From an uncultured Gemmatimonadales bacterium (GTDB lineage: Bacteria; Gemmatimonadota; Gemmatimonadetes; Gemmatimonadales; GWC2-71-9), in contig CAWJMT010000004.1 of NCBI GenBank assembly GCA_963844035.1, positions 391,566 to 455,565 of the forward strand: a DNA stretch of 64,000 nucleotides, read 5' to 3'. This document shows positions 11,955 to 64,000 of this stretch, one piece after another; the stretch's first letter is position 1, and each line of letters starts with the position of its first letter. The notes beneath the pieces are model-generated. The model ran no database searches and was not told the DNA's origin. It worked only from the letters and a program-made list of their open reading frames with translations. The translations under genes were made by a program, and so were the position numbers.

Positions 11955-14867
11955 GTGGCCTTCGACCCACTCCCAGAGCAACGTGCCGCCATCGAGGCGC
12001 CACTCGGCCCCGTCCTCGTCATCGCGGGACCGGGCGCCGGCAAGACGTACTGCCTGGTCGCACGGATCAATCATCTGATCGCAGCGGGCACCGTTTCGCC
12101 CGAGCGCATTTGCGCCGTCACGTTCACCAACCGCGCCGCCGAGGAGATCGCGGCGCGCCTGAAGCACACCCTGGGGGACCGCGCCGAGGCGATCACCCGC
12201 GGCACGATCCACGCCCTGTGCCTCGGCCTGCTGCGCGAGCACGCCGAGCTGGCGGGGTTGCGTAAGGGGTTCGGGGTGGCCGACGACCCCTATCAAAAGG
12301 TGATCCTGAAGCGGCTGGGCGTGCCCCTGAGTCATCGCGGGGGGCTGTTGAACCGGTTCAGTCGCCACCGCGCCCAGGACTACGAGCTGACGGCCGACGA
12401 CATGCGGCTGTATCGCGAGTACGCCGCGTGGCTCGCGGGTCGCAACATGGTGGACTTCGACGACCTGGTCACCAAGGCGCGCGAGCTGCTGCGCACGCAT
12501 TCGGGACTAGCCGAGCGCGTCGCCGCACGCTGGGACTATCTCCTGGTGGACGAGTTCCAGGACGTCAATCCCGTGCAGTACGACCTGCTCAAGCGCCTGG
12601 CCACGCCGCACGACAACTTTTTCGCCGTCGGCGACGACGAGCAGTCGATCTTCACGTGGACCGGGGCCGACCCGTACGTCCTCAAGCGCTTCAGCACCGA
12701 GTACGGGATCGAGCGGCCGATCGTACTCGACAAGAACTGCCGCTGCTCGCGGCAGATCTTCGAGACTGCGCGGCGCGTGCTGGCGCAAAATCCCCAATTG
12801 TTCGACAAGCAGCTCACTGCCGAGCGGGAGTCGCGGTATGAAGTCACCGCGGTCGCCTTTCAGGACGAGCAGGACGAGGCGGCGTGGATCCTGGAAGACA
12901 TCCAGAGCGACCGCGCGGCATCGGGATTGAGTTGGGGCGCCTATGCCCTGCTGTACCGCAAGCACAAGGTCGGTGACTACCTGGAAGGGCGTTTGTTAAA
13001 GGAGGGGATTCCCTGCCGCCTGGCGCGCGGCCGCTCGCTGGTCGAGGACGACGTCATCAAGTACGTCGTGGCGGCGTTACGCATCGTGCGCGACCCGGGG
13101 GACCCCGTCGCGCTCGAAGTGTTCGCGCGCTGCGTGCTCTCGGAGAACTTTCTCCAGGAAGTTCAGGGGGCGATCGGCGCCGCGGACGACTTCTTGGCGG
13201 CGGTGCGCGCGTTGGCGGGGCGCCGCCCCGCGACCGACCCCGATACGCGCAAGCTGTGGCGCTTGGTCTTCCAGGTCGAGAACTTCCACGCCTTGAGCCG
13301 CTCCCACGTCGCCCTGGCGCCGCTCGTGGACGAGATCCTGTCGCAGAGTGTCGGGCCCTACAAGAACGTCCTGGAAGAGCGCCACGACGAGCTCAGCGAT
13401 CCCGCCGATAGCCCCGAAGTCAGAGCCCTCGCCGAGCGACTTGCGCCGGCGCTCGCGGGAGAGCGCAGCGTCGCGATCTCACACCGCAGGGTGGGCTCGA
13501 GATCGCGTTGCGAGGCATGCTCGCGGCCGCCGGGTTCCGGCACGTTCGCTCGGACCTGAACGGCGATCTCGTCATTGGAGCGGGGGATGGAGGCGCGCGC
13601 GGGCTGGCGCTCACCCTGTTCAAGGCGCTCCAGCTGTTGCACGCCAAGGATCTGGACACCCCGCTCGAGCGCTACGTCACCTTTGACCTCGAGACCACGG
13701 ACAACGACGTGGCCAGCTGCGGCGTGGTCGAGATCGGCGCTGCGCGCGTGGTGCGCGGTGAGATCGTGGCCCGGTTTCATACGCTGGTGCAGCCACACCG
13801 GCCGATCTCGCCCAAGGCGAGCGCGATCCACGGCTACACCGATCGGGACCTGGCCGACGCACGCTCGTTCGCCGAGGTGTTCCCCGAATTCCGCGCGTTC
13901 GTGGGCGACGATCTCGTCATCGCGCACAACGGCCAGAAGTTCGACGTCCCGGTGCTGCGCCGTTTGGCCGCCGGTGCGGCCGGCGTGGACACCCTGGCCT
14001 TCTATGATACGCTCCCGCTAGCGCGGTCGCTTTCTAAGGACAGCGTCACGCAGGAGAACCTGGCGCATCGCTTCGGGATCGACGGCGGCAGGGCGCATCA
14101 CGCGTTGGACGATGCCGTCACCCTGGCCGGGATCTATCGCGAGCTCGAGCGCCAGCGCGGCGTGCGTGCACGTAAGGCCGTGCTCGTACACATCCTCGAT
14201 TATCTTGGGCTCGCCCTCGCGCTCGAGGGTCCTGACGACCCGAGCAGAAGCGAGCGGGGAGCGAGCGCTGCTGTTCGACATCGCGCGGGTCCGCACGCTG
14301 GGCCGCTATGGCGACGCGTTGCGGTTCTACGAAGTCGAGCGCGACCGCGCCGGCGCATCCTCCGGGCCAACACTAGACGAAGTGATCGAGCGGTTGGGTG
14401 GAGCCGCCATGATGACTCGCCTGCGCGCCGACCCGGCAGAGCGCTATCCGGCGGCGCTCGCTCGCCTGCGCGCCCTCATGGAGAGCAGCACCGAACGGAC
14501 GTTAGCCGAGAGCATCGATCGCCTGCTCGAACGCATCGCGCTCTCGACGTCTGATGGGGTCGAGGTCGCGCCCGACCGGGTCAATTTGCTCACACTGCAT
14601 TCGACCAAGGGATTGGAGTTCTCGCGCGTCTACGTCGTTGGGGTGGAGGACTATCAGATCCCGGGATTCCACGAGACCAGGGAGCAGCGGGAGACTGATA
14701 TCCAGGAGGCGCGCCGTCTCTTGTACGTCGGCATGACTCGGGCGCGGGAGCGCCTGGTGTTGACCCGCGTCGAGCGGCGGTTCGGCATGGACTCAGGAGG
14801 CAGCGCGTTTCTCGAGGAGATGGGGCTCGAGGTTTCCACAGCCGACGCTTCATACAAGGAGAGTTGA
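11955..14867 (+). CDS. UvrD/PcrA-family helicase with inserted DEDDh 3'-5' exonuclease domain (two apparent frameshifts)
   Basis: AGPGAGKT, LVDEFQD and VGDDEQSIF; FDLETT, AHN..FD and AHHALDD; LTLHSTKGLEF and EARRLLYVGMTRA. Confidence 0.88.
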
Positions 14868-15914
14868 TGAAGCGGCGGGATTTCATTCGGTCGGCGAGCA
14901 TCGTCTCGGCGGGCTTGGCGCTCGGGAAGAAGGGGCAGCTCCTCGCCCGGCCCAAGAAGGCGAGCGGGTGGCGCACCTTCGAGGTCACGACGAACATCGA
15001 GGTTCTTAGCCCCAAGGGAACGACCCGCGTGTGGGTTCCGACCGGCCTCGTCGGCGACACCCCCTATCAGCGCACGCTCGCCAACCACTTCGATGCAGGG
15101 AATGGCTCGGCGCGCCTGGTTCAGCGTACTGCGGATGCGCTAGGCCTGGTCGCCGCGGAGTTCCCCGAGGGCACGAAGCCCGCCCTGACCGTCACGAGCC
15201 GCATCGCGACCCGCGATCACGCGGTCGATCTCAACGGCGCCGCGCGGCACCCAAGGCGAGAGTCGCGCGGACCTGGAGCACTTCCTGCGCCCCACCAAGC
15301 TCATACCCACCGACGGCATCGTGAGGATGACGGCGGGCGATATCACCAGGGGTGCGCGCACCGATCTCGACAAGGCGCGCGTGATCTACGAGTGGATCAT
15401 CGACAACACCGCTCGCAATCCCAAGACGCGCGGCTGCGGACTGGGCGACATCCGGTTCATGCTCGAGACCGGGGACCTGACCGGCAAGTGCGCCGACCTG
15501 AATGCGTTGTTCGTGGGACTCGCGCGCGCGTCCGGCCTGCCGGCGCGCGATGTGTACGGCATCCGCGTCGCCAAGTCGGAGCTGGGCTACGCGAGCCTCG
15601 GACCCGCGACCGGGAAGATCACCAAGTCCCAGCACTGCCGCGCCGAGGTGCACCTCGAGCAGTACGGCTGGGTCCCCGTCGATCCCGCCGATGTCCGCAA
15701 GGTGGTGCTCGAGGAGCCGCCCGGACACCGGCCGCTCGACGACGAGCTCGTGAAGCAGGCTCGCGCGCGGCTGTTCGGGTCGTGGGAGATGAACTGGATC
15801 GCCTACAACTTCGCGCACGACGTGGAACTGCCGGGCTCCTCGGGCAAGCCGGTCGGGTTCCTGATGTATCCGCAGGCCGAACGGCGGGCGGCGACGCTGA
15901 TCCGTACGCATTAG
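14867..15914 (+). CDS. Tat-exported transglutaminase-like protein (frameshift ~15260)
   Basis: KRRDFI twin-Arg signal; GKCADLN, QHCRAEV and GWVPVDP (C-H-D triad). Confidence 0.85.
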
Positions 15915-17416: not shown

Positions 17417-17567
17417 TTTTCCCCGGGCTGACAGCCCGGGCTCGGCGCAAGAGTGCGCCCTGTAAGGGCGCACCCCGGGCCGAGCGCGCCCTCTTAGGGC
17501 GCGGGTTCACGAAACCCAGGATCCCACCGAAGTCATCCGTGAACCCCGGGCTTGTGCCCGGGGTCAG
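17417..17567. repeat. ~150-bp multi-hairpin REP/REPIN-like element, copy 1
   Basis: Several palindromic stems; highly similar direct copy at 18394-18544. Confidence 0.85.
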
Positions 17568-17594
17568 TAGAGGCTCCTCCGTCTTTTACCAGCC

Positions 17595-17618: not shown

Positions 17619-17762
17619 ACCCGGCGTGGTTTCGTCCCCCCTCGCGTGTTTCGGGCACCTCAACCCTTCGGTATGGCTTGCATGGTCTCGACGTGGGCGG
17701 CAGCACGTATGGGATCACGCGTCTCGGCCTTCGGGATTGCCTGGGTTCGCAGCCGGAAAGGT

Positions 17763-17846
17763 GCTGGTGTGGCGAAACAGGTAAACGCGGAGACCTCACA
17801 CGTCTCTGGGCGAAAGCCCTTGTGGGTTCGAATCCCACCACCAGCA
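17763..17846 (+). tRNA. Type II tRNA with a tRNA-Leu body but a CAC (Val) anticodon; CCA not encoded
   Basis: Acceptor GCTGGTG/CACCAGC with A73; D arm GCGAAACAGGTAAACGC; anticodon stem GAGAC/GTCTC with loop CT-CAC-AC; variable arm GGGC-GAAA-GCCC; T arm GTGGG-TTCGAAT-CCCAC. Confidence 0.93.
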
Positions 17847-17863
17847 CCCTCCCCGCACCACTC

Positions 17864-17892
17864 TTGACTCGGCGATGAGCCGAGATGAAGTT
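17864..17892 (+). promoter_or_regulatory. Putative sigma70 promoter of sRNA1 (TTGACT-17 nt-GAAGTT)
   Basis: Same -35 box, spacing and GAnGTT -10 box recur at 18669-18697, although most of the spacer differs. Confidence 0.6.
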
Positions 17893-17898
17893 GTCACT

Positions 17899-17970
17899 AC
17901 GTGTGAGGTCTCCGCGTAGTGCGCCGTTCGCTACGCTGCTGAAGGCCGGAGGGGCAACCCTCCGGCTTTC
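17899..17970 (+). ncRNA. Putative sRNA antisense to the anticodon arm of the upstream tRNA (copy 1)
   Basis: 17899-17917 is the exact reverse complement of 17785-17803; followed by a GCGTAG/CTACGC hairpin and a terminator. Confidence 0.7.
17941..17970 (+). terminator. Intrinsic terminator
   Basis: GCCGGAGGG-GCAA-CCCTCCGGC-TTTC. Confidence 0.75.
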
Positions 17971-18002
17971 GCATTTCCGGGACGGAGGGAGTGCCTTCGT
18001 GA

Positions 18003-18027
18003 TACCGCGGGGCATGGCCCCGCGGTA
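18003..18027. repeat. REP-like palindrome
   Basis: TACCGCGGGGC-atg-GCCCCGCGGTA. Confidence 0.55.
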
Positions 18028-18047: not shown

Positions 18048-18383
18048 GTCCGCGCGCACTTTGCGACCGTCAGCGAGCATCTTCCAATTGTCCGCGCGCA
18101 CGTTGTGATCGTCAGCGGGCATCTTCCGACTGTCCGTGCACACTTTGCGACCGTCAGCGAGCATCTTGCAACTGTCCGCGCACGTCTTTCCGCTGTCAGC
18201 GCACACTTTGCGACTGTCCGCAGGCACTGGGGGACTGTCCGCGCGTTCTTGGGCGTGATCCGGGGACACTTTGCAAACGACAGAGCGCACTGGGCGATTG
18301 TCCGAGCGCTTTGGGGGACGGTCCGGGGACATCGGGGGATCGTCAGCGCGTCTCTTGCAACAATCCGAGCATTCCTCGGGCCG
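18048..18383. repeat. Degenerate 21-bp tandem array, 16 units, no indels, open on both strands
   Basis: Consensus ~GTCCGCGCGCACTTTGCGACT; the first 8 units alternate GTCCG/GTCAG. Confidence 0.85.
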
Positions 18384-18393
18384 AACCGCGTCC

Positions 18394-18544
18394 TTTTCCC
18401 GGGCTCATAGCCCGGGCTCGGCGCGAATGTGCGCCCTGTAAGGGCGCACCCCAGGCCGAGCGCGCCCTCTCAGGGCGCGGGTTCACGAAACCCAAGATCC
18501 CGCAGAAGTCATCCCGTGAACCCCGGGCTTGCGCCCGGGGTCAG
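18394..18544. repeat. ~150-bp multi-hairpin REP/REPIN-like element, copy 2
   Basis: Direct copy of 17417-17567, with differences mostly in loops and linkers. Confidence 0.85.
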
Positions 18545-18621
18545 CACAGACGGCGACGACGTGACAACCCGACCGCCCGACCGCCGCCTTTGTGGTTTGA
18601 CCGCCTGACCGCCGCATCACA

Positions 18622-18651
18622 TTGTGGGTTCGAGTCCCACCACCAGCACCC
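18622..18651 (+). pseudogene. 3' fragment (T arm plus acceptor strand) of the same tRNA
   Basis: TTGTGGGTTCGAGTCCCACCACCAGCACCC matches 17820-17849 at 29 of 30 positions. Confidence 0.85.
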
Positions 18652-18668
18652 CCACTCTTAGGTGTCCA

Positions 18669-18697
18669 TTGACTCGGCCGCGGCAATTCACGATGTT
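18669..18697 (+). promoter_or_regulatory. Putative promoter of sRNA2 (TTGACT-17 nt-GATGTT)
   Basis: Same architecture as 17864-17892. Confidence 0.6.
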
Positions 18698-18703
18698 TTC
18701 ACT

Positions 18704-18773
18704 GTGTGAGATCTCTGCGTAGCCAGTTTCGCTACGCCAAGAAAGCCGGGGAGCGTAACGCTCTCCGGCTTTT
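18704..18773 (+). ncRNA. Putative anti-tRNA sRNA, diverged copy 2
   Basis: GTGTGAGATCTCTGCGT, then GCGTAGC/GCTACGC hairpin, then AAAGCCGGGGAGCG-taa-CGCTCTCCGGCTTTT terminator (possibly bidirectional). Confidence 0.65.
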
Positions 18774-18782
18774 GAGGCGTGT

Positions 18783-20262
18783 CTATGCCCGCCAACTCCG
18801 CGCAGCTCTCTCCACCAGCTTGCACCATCGCCCAGGTGTCGCGCTCGCAGTAGTCGAGCAGGTCCTGCCGCACGCGATCGCGCTCGTGCTGCGGGATCTT
18901 GTCCGCGACAAACAGGAGCCGCGCGATCTCGACGCTCGCGACGCCGGCCGTCCACGATCACGAGATCGTTGTAGGTCAGCTCGGGGACGAGGGGCGTGAG
19001 GATGTCCTTCAAGCTGAAGCTGCCCCTGAAATCGGGGTGGTAGACGCAGTTCTTCACGACCGGGATGCAGGTCGATCAGCTTCGCCTCGAGCGCCGTGAG
19101 CTCGGCGGCGAGGTCGGGCACCGCCCGTTGCAGCTCCCGGATGCGGGTCCTCTCGAATGGCGTGTACGTCGCCACCCGCTCGGCGTTGGCGGTCGCTCGC
19201 ACCATCGCTTCAGCGAGCGGCGGGCGCGCGTCCTTCGGTCCTTCGGCGAGGAACGCCGCGTGAGTGTAGGTGCCGTCGGGCTGACGTTCGTGGTAGCTGA
19301 ACTGAGCGGCGGCCTGCTGCCAGGGGGCCATGCCGGGCCAGACGGGGATCGCACGAGCGATGGTTTCGAAGTCGAGGAAGCCCAGGCGCCCCGCAAATGG
19401 CTCCAGCTCACTTCGCGAGCGTCGGCTCGACGATGACGCGGTTCTCGGCCATCGCCTTGAGCTGGCGTTTCTGCGTGAAGTTGAGCTTCTCCTTCGCCGG
19501 CAACTGGCCGATCGAGGTGATGCCGCGCTCGAGATAGGCCGACGGTCTTTTTCGGTCCCGACGCCGGCGAGGTTCCCGATATGGTCCGGCCCGTCGGGCC
19601 AGCAGCGCTTCAAGAACGGGCAGTCCCGCGGCTCGAAGCAGTGCGCGCCGATCGATACGTCGGGGAGCGGCCCGACGAGCATCGCCCGCTGCGCCGCGAT
19701 CTCGTCCGGAACCGTGGGGAGCAGCGCGACTACCGCCCCGGTCACGTCGGTGCGGGCGAAGAGGTCGCCCGTGTCGGGATGCCGGAACTCCTTGTTGAGG
19801 TGCATCACCTCCGCGCTCGTGACGTTCACGCCGCAGGCCGCGGCGACGCGGGCCTGGATGGCGACGTCCGGGATGTGCTCGTCCTTCTGTGAGGTGGATG
19901 ATTTCACCTCGGTCAGCCGGTAGCCGTCGTCCTGCTTCTCGAGCACGTCGATGGCGACGAACATGCCGTCGGCGATGAACGTCGCTTCGAAGACCGCGGG
20001 GGCGCCCGCATCAAGCGCCTTCTTCGTCGCCGCGACGCGCTCGGCGCCCGCGTTGTGCGGCAGGTCGATCAGCACGCCACCCGGATATCGCGCGCGGGCC
20101 GCTTCGCCCACCTGGCGGCCCTGGTCGAAGAGGTCCTGTAGCACCTTGTCGGGCTGGAGCTCGAGCGGCGTCGGGCTCGTGCACTTCCCACCACAATTTC
20201 TTGTGGCATTGGAGGCCGGAGGTGAAGCGGGATTTGGAGAGGCGGGGGAGGGGCTGGGTCAT
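18783..20262 (-). CDS. DUF2779-type protein: Cas4-like PD-(D/E)XK nuclease plus C-terminal RNase H-like exonuclease domain (several frameshifts)
   Basis: LSKSRF..GLQC.KKLW; IDVL...LTEVKSST; C.....C.....C; FLDFET; GSFSLK; LLDYCERDT. Confidence 0.8.
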
Positions 20263-63919: not shown

Positions 63920-64000
63920 CGACAATGAGGCTATATCTTGTTTAACTCTTTTGTTGAGAAATAGAAATAGGTATTATACTTTCCTTCACAACTTTAATCA

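Follow-up and report, generated by a model that had tools for sequence, protein, structure and literature searches.

The element at positions 18622-18773 of the window, by which we mean the whole 64,000-nucleotide stretch of DNA analysed here, consists of a 30-nt tRNA 3' stub, a sigma-70-like promoter and a small RNA (sRNA) gene, hereafter copy 2. Our analysis indicates that copy 2 is probably the orphan antitoxin gene of an all-RNA toxin-antitoxin family, in which a mistranslating tRNA would be held in check by an antisense sRNA. This reading is based on the observed tRNA bodies, the anticodon spectrum, the position-by-position complementarity between tRNA and sRNA, the promoter- and terminator-like frame of the sRNA genes and the excess of lone sRNAs. 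In such a family, LeuRS would charge the tRNAs because it ignores the anticodon, and the charged tRNAs would insert Leu at Ala, Val, Arg, Asp, Glu, Ser, Thr or Gly codons, poisoning the proteome. Natural mistranslating tRNAs have been described as toxic in E. coli, arresting or killing the cells (main texts of PMC5389517 and PMC10404621). The free 5' end of the sRNA would seed on the anticodon loop and invade the stem through to the D arm, and the duplex would block decoding and probably trigger its own decay. The sRNA would be shorter-lived than the tRNA, and loss of the locus or a shut-off of transcription would free the toxin. New anticodon-arm sequences would escape resident antitoxins; diversification would thus be driven and the keeping of old antitoxins favoured. 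At the copy 2 locus, a resident tRNA with the stem GAGAT/ATCTC and the loop CTCACAC would have lost its leader and 5' part, while its sRNA remained. We see about even chances for a fuller version, a protein-free addiction module of ~300 bp whose Leu-charged tRNA reads an abundant non-Leu codon and is held by a leader in cis and the sRNA in trans, with modules competing by changes of the arm and orphan antitoxins banked as immunity.

Layout of the locus and its assembly

The stub (18622..18651, plus strand) is a remnant of a family tRNA comprising the end of the variable arm, the T arm and the 3' acceptor strand, with A73 at 18648. It is identical at 29 of 30 positions to the 3' end of an intact tRNA upstream (17820-17849, spacing 802) and, at the same 29/30, to two other family tRNAs; in a leader-plus-tRNA profile of 162 positions it matches positions 133-161. 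Downstream follow the predicted sigma-70-type promoter of copy 2 (18669..18697, plus strand; -35 TTGACT, 17 nt, -10 GATGTT) and the sRNA itself (18704..18773, plus strand), which reaches 77.8 bits with our family model R1, copy 2 being one of the 50 training sequences behind that score. Its 5' part is the antisense box (18704-18720), followed by the GCGTAG/CTACGC hairpin (18717-18737) and a terminator-like hairpin (18742-18773), all on the plus strand.

The intact unit, likewise on the plus strand, begins with a conserved leader of ~70 nt (17693..17762; start approximate, function presumptive) that contains a degenerate box against the anticodon arm (17705-17722) and ends in GGT at -3 to -1 of the tRNA (17760-17762). 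The predicted toxin is a leucine-bodied tRNA with the Val anticodon CAC (17763..17846, anticodon at 17797-17799), called by ARAGORN and matched by the Rfam tRNA model at 59 bits; it forms a cloverleaf with a long variable arm and has Leu identity elements. Behind it lie the promoter (17864-17892) and sRNA (from about 17899) of copy 1, the predicted cognate antitoxin (17864..17972). The -35 boxes start at 17864 and 18669 (spacing 805), and both promoters read TTGACT-17-GAnGTT; the GATGTT variant is common to a subfamily, and the -10 box of copy 2 is weak. The original prediction that the unit recurs ~805 bp downstream was thus borne out, with the 29/30 stub, both -35 boxes and the hairpins all in place. 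One of its proposed shared elements, CCACTCTT, did not hold up: it occurs in both copies but out of register, since it overlaps the -35 box in copy 1 and lies 10 nt before that box in copy 2; nor is it a conserved element of the family.

The space between the units is taken up by a degenerate array of ~15 21-nt tandem repeats (18048..18370), a filler unique in the genome, and by a REP-like palindromic element with GACCGCC repeats (18394..18615) that stands in place of the 5' part of the unit 2 tRNA. The REP-like element, ~155 bp long, is present at 17418-17572 and 18394-18549, and copies at about 90% lie on four other contigs. Downstream of copy 2, a DUF2779 gene on the minus strand (18783..20262; Pfam PF11074, E 1.8e-23), frameshifted in the assembly, serves as a synteny marker. 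The UvrD helicase (11955-14867), transglutaminase-like (15321-15914) and DUF2779 (18783-20262) genes are all split by frameshifts, which are probably assembly errors. Fold z-scores range from -4.5 to -5.7, placing the locus far beyond chance, and tRNA is the sole Rfam family matched in the window. A generic promoter and terminator scanner called neither promoter and neither terminator at copies 1 and 2, so that the promoter assignment rests on conservation across the family.

The GC content of the window's contig falls from ~0.65 to 0.22-0.35 after 21.7 kb and stays there to position 64000, the genome as a whole having 0.67. By base composition, contig C4 appears to be a chimera in which 42 kb (21700-64000 of the window) are foreign DNA; contig C22 has a similar low-GC end. 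Because of this drop, the assembly of both units was checked. For unit 1, one independent contig covers 17663-17891 without a difference and another covers 17860-18010 with one. An independent contig from a rhizosphere run, X6 (251 nt, depth 2), bridges 18460-18685, which shows that the stub junction is not an assembly artefact; in the other seven of the eight sequencing runs examined, no contig bridged it.

Pairing, relatives and origin of copy 2

Copy 1 is complementary to tRNA positions 17785-17803 at 19/19. Copy 2 had been predicted to pair with the intact tRNA at 15 of 17 positions plus one G-U, and a hand count over its first 17 nt against 17785-17801 agrees, the remaining position being an A-C mismatch. 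The first 8 nt of copy 2 are predicted to be unpaired. Predicted duplex energies with the window tRNA are -30.0 kcal/mol for copy 2 versus -39.8 kcal/mol for copy 1. Cofolding of copy 2 gives predicted gains of -23.5 kcal/mol with the window tRNA and -25.1 kcal/mol with a CAC tRNA on contig C27, as against 0 to -8.4 kcal/mol with ten host tRNAs. These values make cross-neutralisation plausible, and host tRNAs should be largely spared; copy 2 is thus predicted by modelling to still neutralise both the upstream tRNA and the C27 CAC tRNA.

The idea that copy 2 had diverged from copy 1 found no support, and a tandem duplication of unit 1 was rejected on the same grounds. Copy 2 is 71-72% identical to copy 1, but two sRNAs of contig C27 match it at 89-91% over 56-57 nt, and locus L062, the best match of copy 2 among the loci compared, at 80% over 157 nt. 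The two copies also fall into different tree groups with weak support, trees of such short sequences being mostly unresolved. The stem that copy 2 predicts, GAGAT/ATCTC, is present in the intact tRNA of L062, and the locus is syntenic, with a DUF2779 gene downstream that matches the window's at 76% over 1108 nt. This tRNA now has the anticodon CGC, to which the sRNA of L062 corresponds, while the leader box of the locus is still directed against the older CTCACAC (CAC) loop.

A search for tRNAs bearing the perfect target predicted for copy 2 established it as a real family anticodon arm: the exact arm, followed by ATCTC, stands behind a family leader in metagenome contig L295. That copy lacks the 5' acceptor strand and is truncated by the end of the contig. 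A second metagenome match (L296) was discarded as an unrelated AT-rich chance match, and the perfect target is absent from the host genome, which is 84% complete. The proposal of purifying selection on the sRNA fared only in part. The gene is conserved in the family, but the pattern of kept and diverged parts is a family-wide constraint and is therefore no proof of selection on copy 2 after the truncation.

As to how copy 2 came to lie behind a stub, and irrespective of its function, the original prediction had named an attR-like scar as the alternative to the loss of the tRNA 5' part. DNA carrying copy 1 and the repeats would have recombined at the variable-arm/T-arm border of a resident tRNA, displacing the old 3' end and its sRNA. 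A whole tRNA followed at a distance by a 3' stub is the classic signature of integration, and the 30-nt duplicate of the tRNA 3' end downstream of the intact tRNA resembles attL/attR scars. The leader and tRNA of unit 1 are moreover most similar to those of L089 and L062, that is, to copy 2's own subfamily. The X6 contig (a single 251-nt contig at depth 2) carries a near-identical left flank and the same join point, yet its stub has 4/30 differences, including a compensatory T-stem pair, and the start of its sRNA is complementary to a Glu (CTC) loop. This short contig suggests a reused or recombining junction; should the module reading be true, units of stub, promoter and sRNA would be exchanged as cassettes.

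Five observations nonetheless weaken the scar. A crossover in the T arm would have left an anticodon arm matching copy 2, yet the arm matches copy 1 at 19/19, which is the reverse of a simple attL/attR arrangement. The five stubs in the family have five different break positions (104, 116, 129, 130 and 133 of the profile), and three further sRNAs are accompanied by no more than the 5' part of a tRNA. A downstream stub accompanies only 1 of 49 intact units, and the junction is absent from 400 other genomes of the bacterial family. Finally, in a search for tyrosine recombinases the nearest one lies ~270 kb off, and the 770 bp between tRNA and stub contain no ORF accepted by a coding-bias caller. 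Unlike in attL/attR scars, then, break points vary, there is no integrase nearby and the displaced DNA has a conserved sRNA gene. We consider the scar rather unlikely and favour the origin of the stub by loss of the tRNA 5' part, as had been originally proposed; family loci have often lost the tRNA and kept the sRNA (40 of 119 sRNAs, see below).

The tRNA-sRNA family

Further homologs of copy 2 had been anticipated and were found in number. Judged by sequence, they form a family, belonging to Gemmatimonadales bacteria, of leucine-bodied tRNAs with non-leucine anticodons, each with a cognate antisense sRNA downstream. The family was collected by a DNA search of 60 relatives, from 20 regions and by a tRNA-first pattern scan of GTDB (at least 119 loci), the latter blind to the sRNA and excluding A35 anticodons. 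It comprises 14 anticodons for 8 amino acids in 101 distinct anticodon arms (Ala 55, Val 25, Arg 5, Asp 5, Glu 5, Ser 3, Thr 2, Gly 1), a spectrum biased by the choice of queries. Gemmatimonadota contain at least 61 distinct tRNAs of this kind, including one on a 4.4-kb contig labelled Zixiibacteriota. Among the matches listed, 60 of the 61 have an antisense partner 40-91 nt downstream scoring 13-21, the exception having a Pro anticodon. By comparison, the highest score is 10.5 among 16 canonical Leu tRNAs (0/16 with a partner) and 12 among 39 well-formed look-alikes of other phyla. When whole loci of the 28 look-alikes with A73 were searched on both strands, four scores of 14-16.5 appeared at scattered distances.

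The complementarity is confined to tRNA positions 22-40, fading past 40 and before 22. Positions 34-38 are Watson-Crick paired in 60/60 units, and all four pair types occur at each of positions 34, 35 and 36, in a register set by best complementarity with which the promoter anchor agrees in 53/60. Cognate partners score 16.5 of 18 compared with 10.7 +/- 2.5 for swapped partners, and the cognate is the top scorer in 51/59 cases. The anticodon stems are hypervariable (40 types in 60). A TTG lies 33-37 nt before the antisense start in 53/60 units, versus a mean of 2.3 in shifted windows, and 17 nt on, a -10 box (nAnnnT) has its A and its T each in 43/53; the antisense box thus starts close to the predicted +1. 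Across 50 members, both helices of the sRNA covary, with two-sided changes in 15/18 pairs (0 of 500 shuffles). The seed is only moderately open across the family (mean unpaired probability 0.47). It is very improbable that the antisense box stems from a local inverted duplication and copy 2 is a drifting, functionless duplicate: the perfect target of copy 2 is indeed missing from the incomplete host genome and the region is repeat-rich, but the confinement of the complementarity to positions 22-40, its tracking of 14 anticodons, the fixed promoter distance and the two covarying helices rule out neutrality for the family, although for copy 2 alone a recent loss of function is conceivable.

Besides the window's unit, the host genome has three further long-arm tRNAs (two CAC, one TGC), each with a matching antisense box, so that it holds 4 intact units and 3 orphan sRNAs, namely copy 2 and two more lone sRNAs. 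The sRNA covariance model found matches in 58 of 150 genomes of the bacterial family, with up to 13 per genome. In a sample of the phylum it found matches in 22/120 genomes, all of the same order, and in 0/36 genomes from other families. Among the matches listed, 43 of 44 Gemmatimonadota tRNA loci have the sRNA (8 of these being duplicates of scored units), and 40 of 119 distinct sRNAs lack an adjacent whole tRNA directly upstream. The 119 sRNAs score at least 20 bits, come from the DNA around most of 150 listed matches (30 loci and 95 regions; a further 61 matches lie outside these 150) and were partly classified by hand; some of them trained the model, and related genomes are not independent. 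Intact tRNAs precede 67 of them, a tRNA cut by the contig end precedes one, tRNAs with a T-loop insertion precede nine and a tRNA without a variable arm precedes one. The rest comprise 5 behind 3' stubs, 3 with 5' remnants, 2 extra tandem copies, 30 without trace of a tRNA within 330 nt and 1 at the edge of a contig. In no case among the 119 does the sRNA stand behind a tRNA with a Leu anticodon. Such an asymmetry, with more lone sRNAs than lone tRNAs, is typical of toxin-antitoxin systems. At four loci (L233, L272, L190 and L294), tandem or clustered sRNAs of different specificities lie behind one tRNA, rather like small immunity arrays.

The neighbourhoods vary: the 191 proteins predicted with our own ORF caller around 52 loci include one transposase and no integrase. 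No family match was found in viral contigs (with a pattern limited to C36), phages or plasmids. These data bear on the possibility that tRNA and sRNA together form a switch serving the host, for regulated adaptive mistranslation or phage defence, with copy 2 as an extra off-switch. The sRNA would keep the tRNA off until stress or a phage-induced shut-off of transcription freed it to the host's benefit. Mistranslation can be beneficial, according to the main text of PMC10404621; type II toxin-antitoxin-type genes lie within 2.6 kb at 7 of the 52 loci (a raw count, given without a background rate); and two genomes (L072 and L127) keep an Asp-type unit at the ruvB-queA site, conserved sites being otherwise rare. 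On the other hand, the patchy distribution, the up to 13 copies, the variable sites, the frequent decay and the 14 interchangeable anticodons fit addiction or conflict better. We therefore consider a host switch improbable, although it shares its molecular mechanism with the orphan-antitoxin reading and the two are not mutually exclusive.

The identity of the tRNA bodies bears on a further possibility, namely that the tRNA is harmful or active without inserting Leu. Uncharged, it could stall ribosomes; it could also titrate LeuRS or EF-Tu, serve anticodon nucleases as a decoy or carry Val, with the sRNA still in control. The window tRNA is called Val (CAC) by ARAGORN, but in its body it agrees with the five kinds of Leu tRNA in the host, with a Leu-type D loop, a 15-nt variable region, A15:U48 and A73; a canonical Val-CAC tRNA is found elsewhere in the genome. 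In E. coli, Leu identity is described as resting on A73, A15-U48, G18G19 and A20a, the anticodon being unused (PMC9976931). The family tRNAs belong to the bacterial tRNA-Leu identity class by A73, A15:U48, G18G19, A20a and the long variable arm, of which the D-loop motif and the arm length were partly required by our search pattern, whereas A73 and A15:U48 were not. Among 60 units, A73 is present in 59 (the other being a one-base misparse), A14-A15 in 59, A15:U48 in 58 and G3:U70 in none. G3:U70 is the determinant of AlaRS, and the Ala-anticodon members are thus without it.

A 7-bp acceptor stem and a 5-bp T stem are each kept in 57/60 units and A37 in 60/60 (a purine was required by the search pattern), while C replaces U33 in 15/60, which may weaken decoding. 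The anticodons match abundant codons, the targeted ones averaging 48 per 1000 versus 16 for the average codon, with the same query bias. Together with the LeuRS determinants, these features argue against activity without Leu insertion. Pointing the other way, CCA is encoded in only 1/60 units, and in 36/60, compared with 0/16 canonical Leu tRNAs, a GGT at -3 to -1 can lengthen the acceptor stem to 10 bp by pairing with A73-C74-C75, which may slow cleavage by RNase P. The Val-anticodon members, the window's included, have A35, C36 and A73; given its determinants as described in PMC9976931, ValRS could account for part or all of their charging, and such charging would make them harmless. Some allo-tRNAs killed cells without suppressing, as stated in the main text of PMC5389517. 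Furthermore, nine family tRNAs carry a structured insertion of ~45 nt at T-loop position 55 (L186, L202, L206, L213, L263, L273, L277, L278 and L285), of at least three sequence types, and eight of the nine keep a loop-matched sRNA. No Rfam family matches the insertions of these nine loci; they could be tiny self-removing elements or conditional switches. On balance, we give little credit to a tRNA that acts without Leu insertion.

With respect to control in cis, a degenerate box complementary to the anticodon arm lies in the leader ~55-60 nt upstream of the tRNA and, together with the GGT, may delay maturation. Covariation between the box and the tRNA of the same unit is weak (the cognate ranks first in 4/32, mean 8.75 versus 6.8), and in folded precursors the leader pairs with the anticodon arm in only 4/10, the window precursor not being among them. 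Inhibition in cis is consequently a lead rather than a result.

Relation to known systems

We use the toxin-antitoxin label as a functional analogy with type VIII systems, the RNA-RNA toxin-antitoxin pairs represented by SdsR-RyeA (PMC8610362). At the sequence level, the sRNAs agree with the definition of the type VIII antitoxin as a small RNA complementary to a toxin RNA. As in SdsR-RyeA, both partners are RNA, and antisense pairing would allow the antitoxin to mask the toxin; but SdsR is described there as an mRNA-targeting sRNA with the antitoxin on the opposite strand of the same locus (PMC8610362), whereas in our family a whole tRNA is predicted to be the toxin, with the antitoxin as a separate gene on the same strand with at least 14 anticodon specificities. 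CreTA, likewise an all-RNA addiction module acting on translation via tRNA-codon pairing, works by other means: according to PMC8501985, CreT ties up a host tRNA that is rare, and CreA relies on Cas proteins to repress transcription. In our family, the role of toxin is predicted for the tRNA itself, and the Pfam matches of the 191 neighbouring proteins include no Cas family. Membership in either system was rejected, since tRNA is the only Rfam match, the sRNA lies downstream on the same strand and no Cas family neighbours it. The hok/sok type I systems also have an antisense RNA antitoxin with its own promoter, and perhaps share a self-inhibiting primary toxin transcript, which the leader box would correspond to here; their toxin, unlike ours, is a protein, and the family has no ORF.

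Two groups of natural tRNAs come closer on the toxin side. The allo-tRNAs of Mukai et al. also show a natural disagreement between identity and anticodon, are lethal in E. coli and often lie near toxin-antitoxin systems, but their folds are 8/4 or 9/3, their identity is Ser or Ala and they occur in Acidobacteria, as given in the main text of PMC5389517, in contrast to the canonical 7/5 Leu bodies found here. We rejected an assignment to them because of the 7-bp acceptor and 5-bp T stems (57/60 each), A73 and the lack of G3:U70. The main text of PMC5389517 contains neither 'antisense' nor 'complementary', and its supplements may show partners of allo-tRNAs. tRNA-ProX of Streptomycetaceae is likewise a dual-identity family with several anticodons that mistranslates and slows growth; it differs in its Pro identity and its position beside ProRSx, and the main text describes no antisense partner (PMC10404621). 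In the literature searched, mostly outside subscription journals, we found no report of the family, of an antisense RNA against an anticodon arm or of a toxin-antitoxin system that corrupts the genetic code; the family is apparently undescribed.

If our reading is right, the family would be a natural case in which a tRNA is silenced at its anticodon arm by a small RNA dedicated to it, and a toxin-antitoxin system with a toxin that corrupts the genetic code. It would also account for odd tRNA genes that are mis-annotated as 'Ala' and 'Val' across an abundant soil lineage. The more than 100 naturally evolved and largely orthogonal tRNA/anti-tRNA pairs would make a test set for the retention of orphan antitoxins, and the family could serve synthetic biology as a ready on/off switch for suppressor tRNAs. 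Two Blastocatellia records (L148:284-367 and L165, minus strand) hold related Leu-bodied tRNAs with Asp and Gly anticodons. Neither has an antisense partner within 650 bp, and both have a similar small gene downstream; they possibly represent another mistranslating family.
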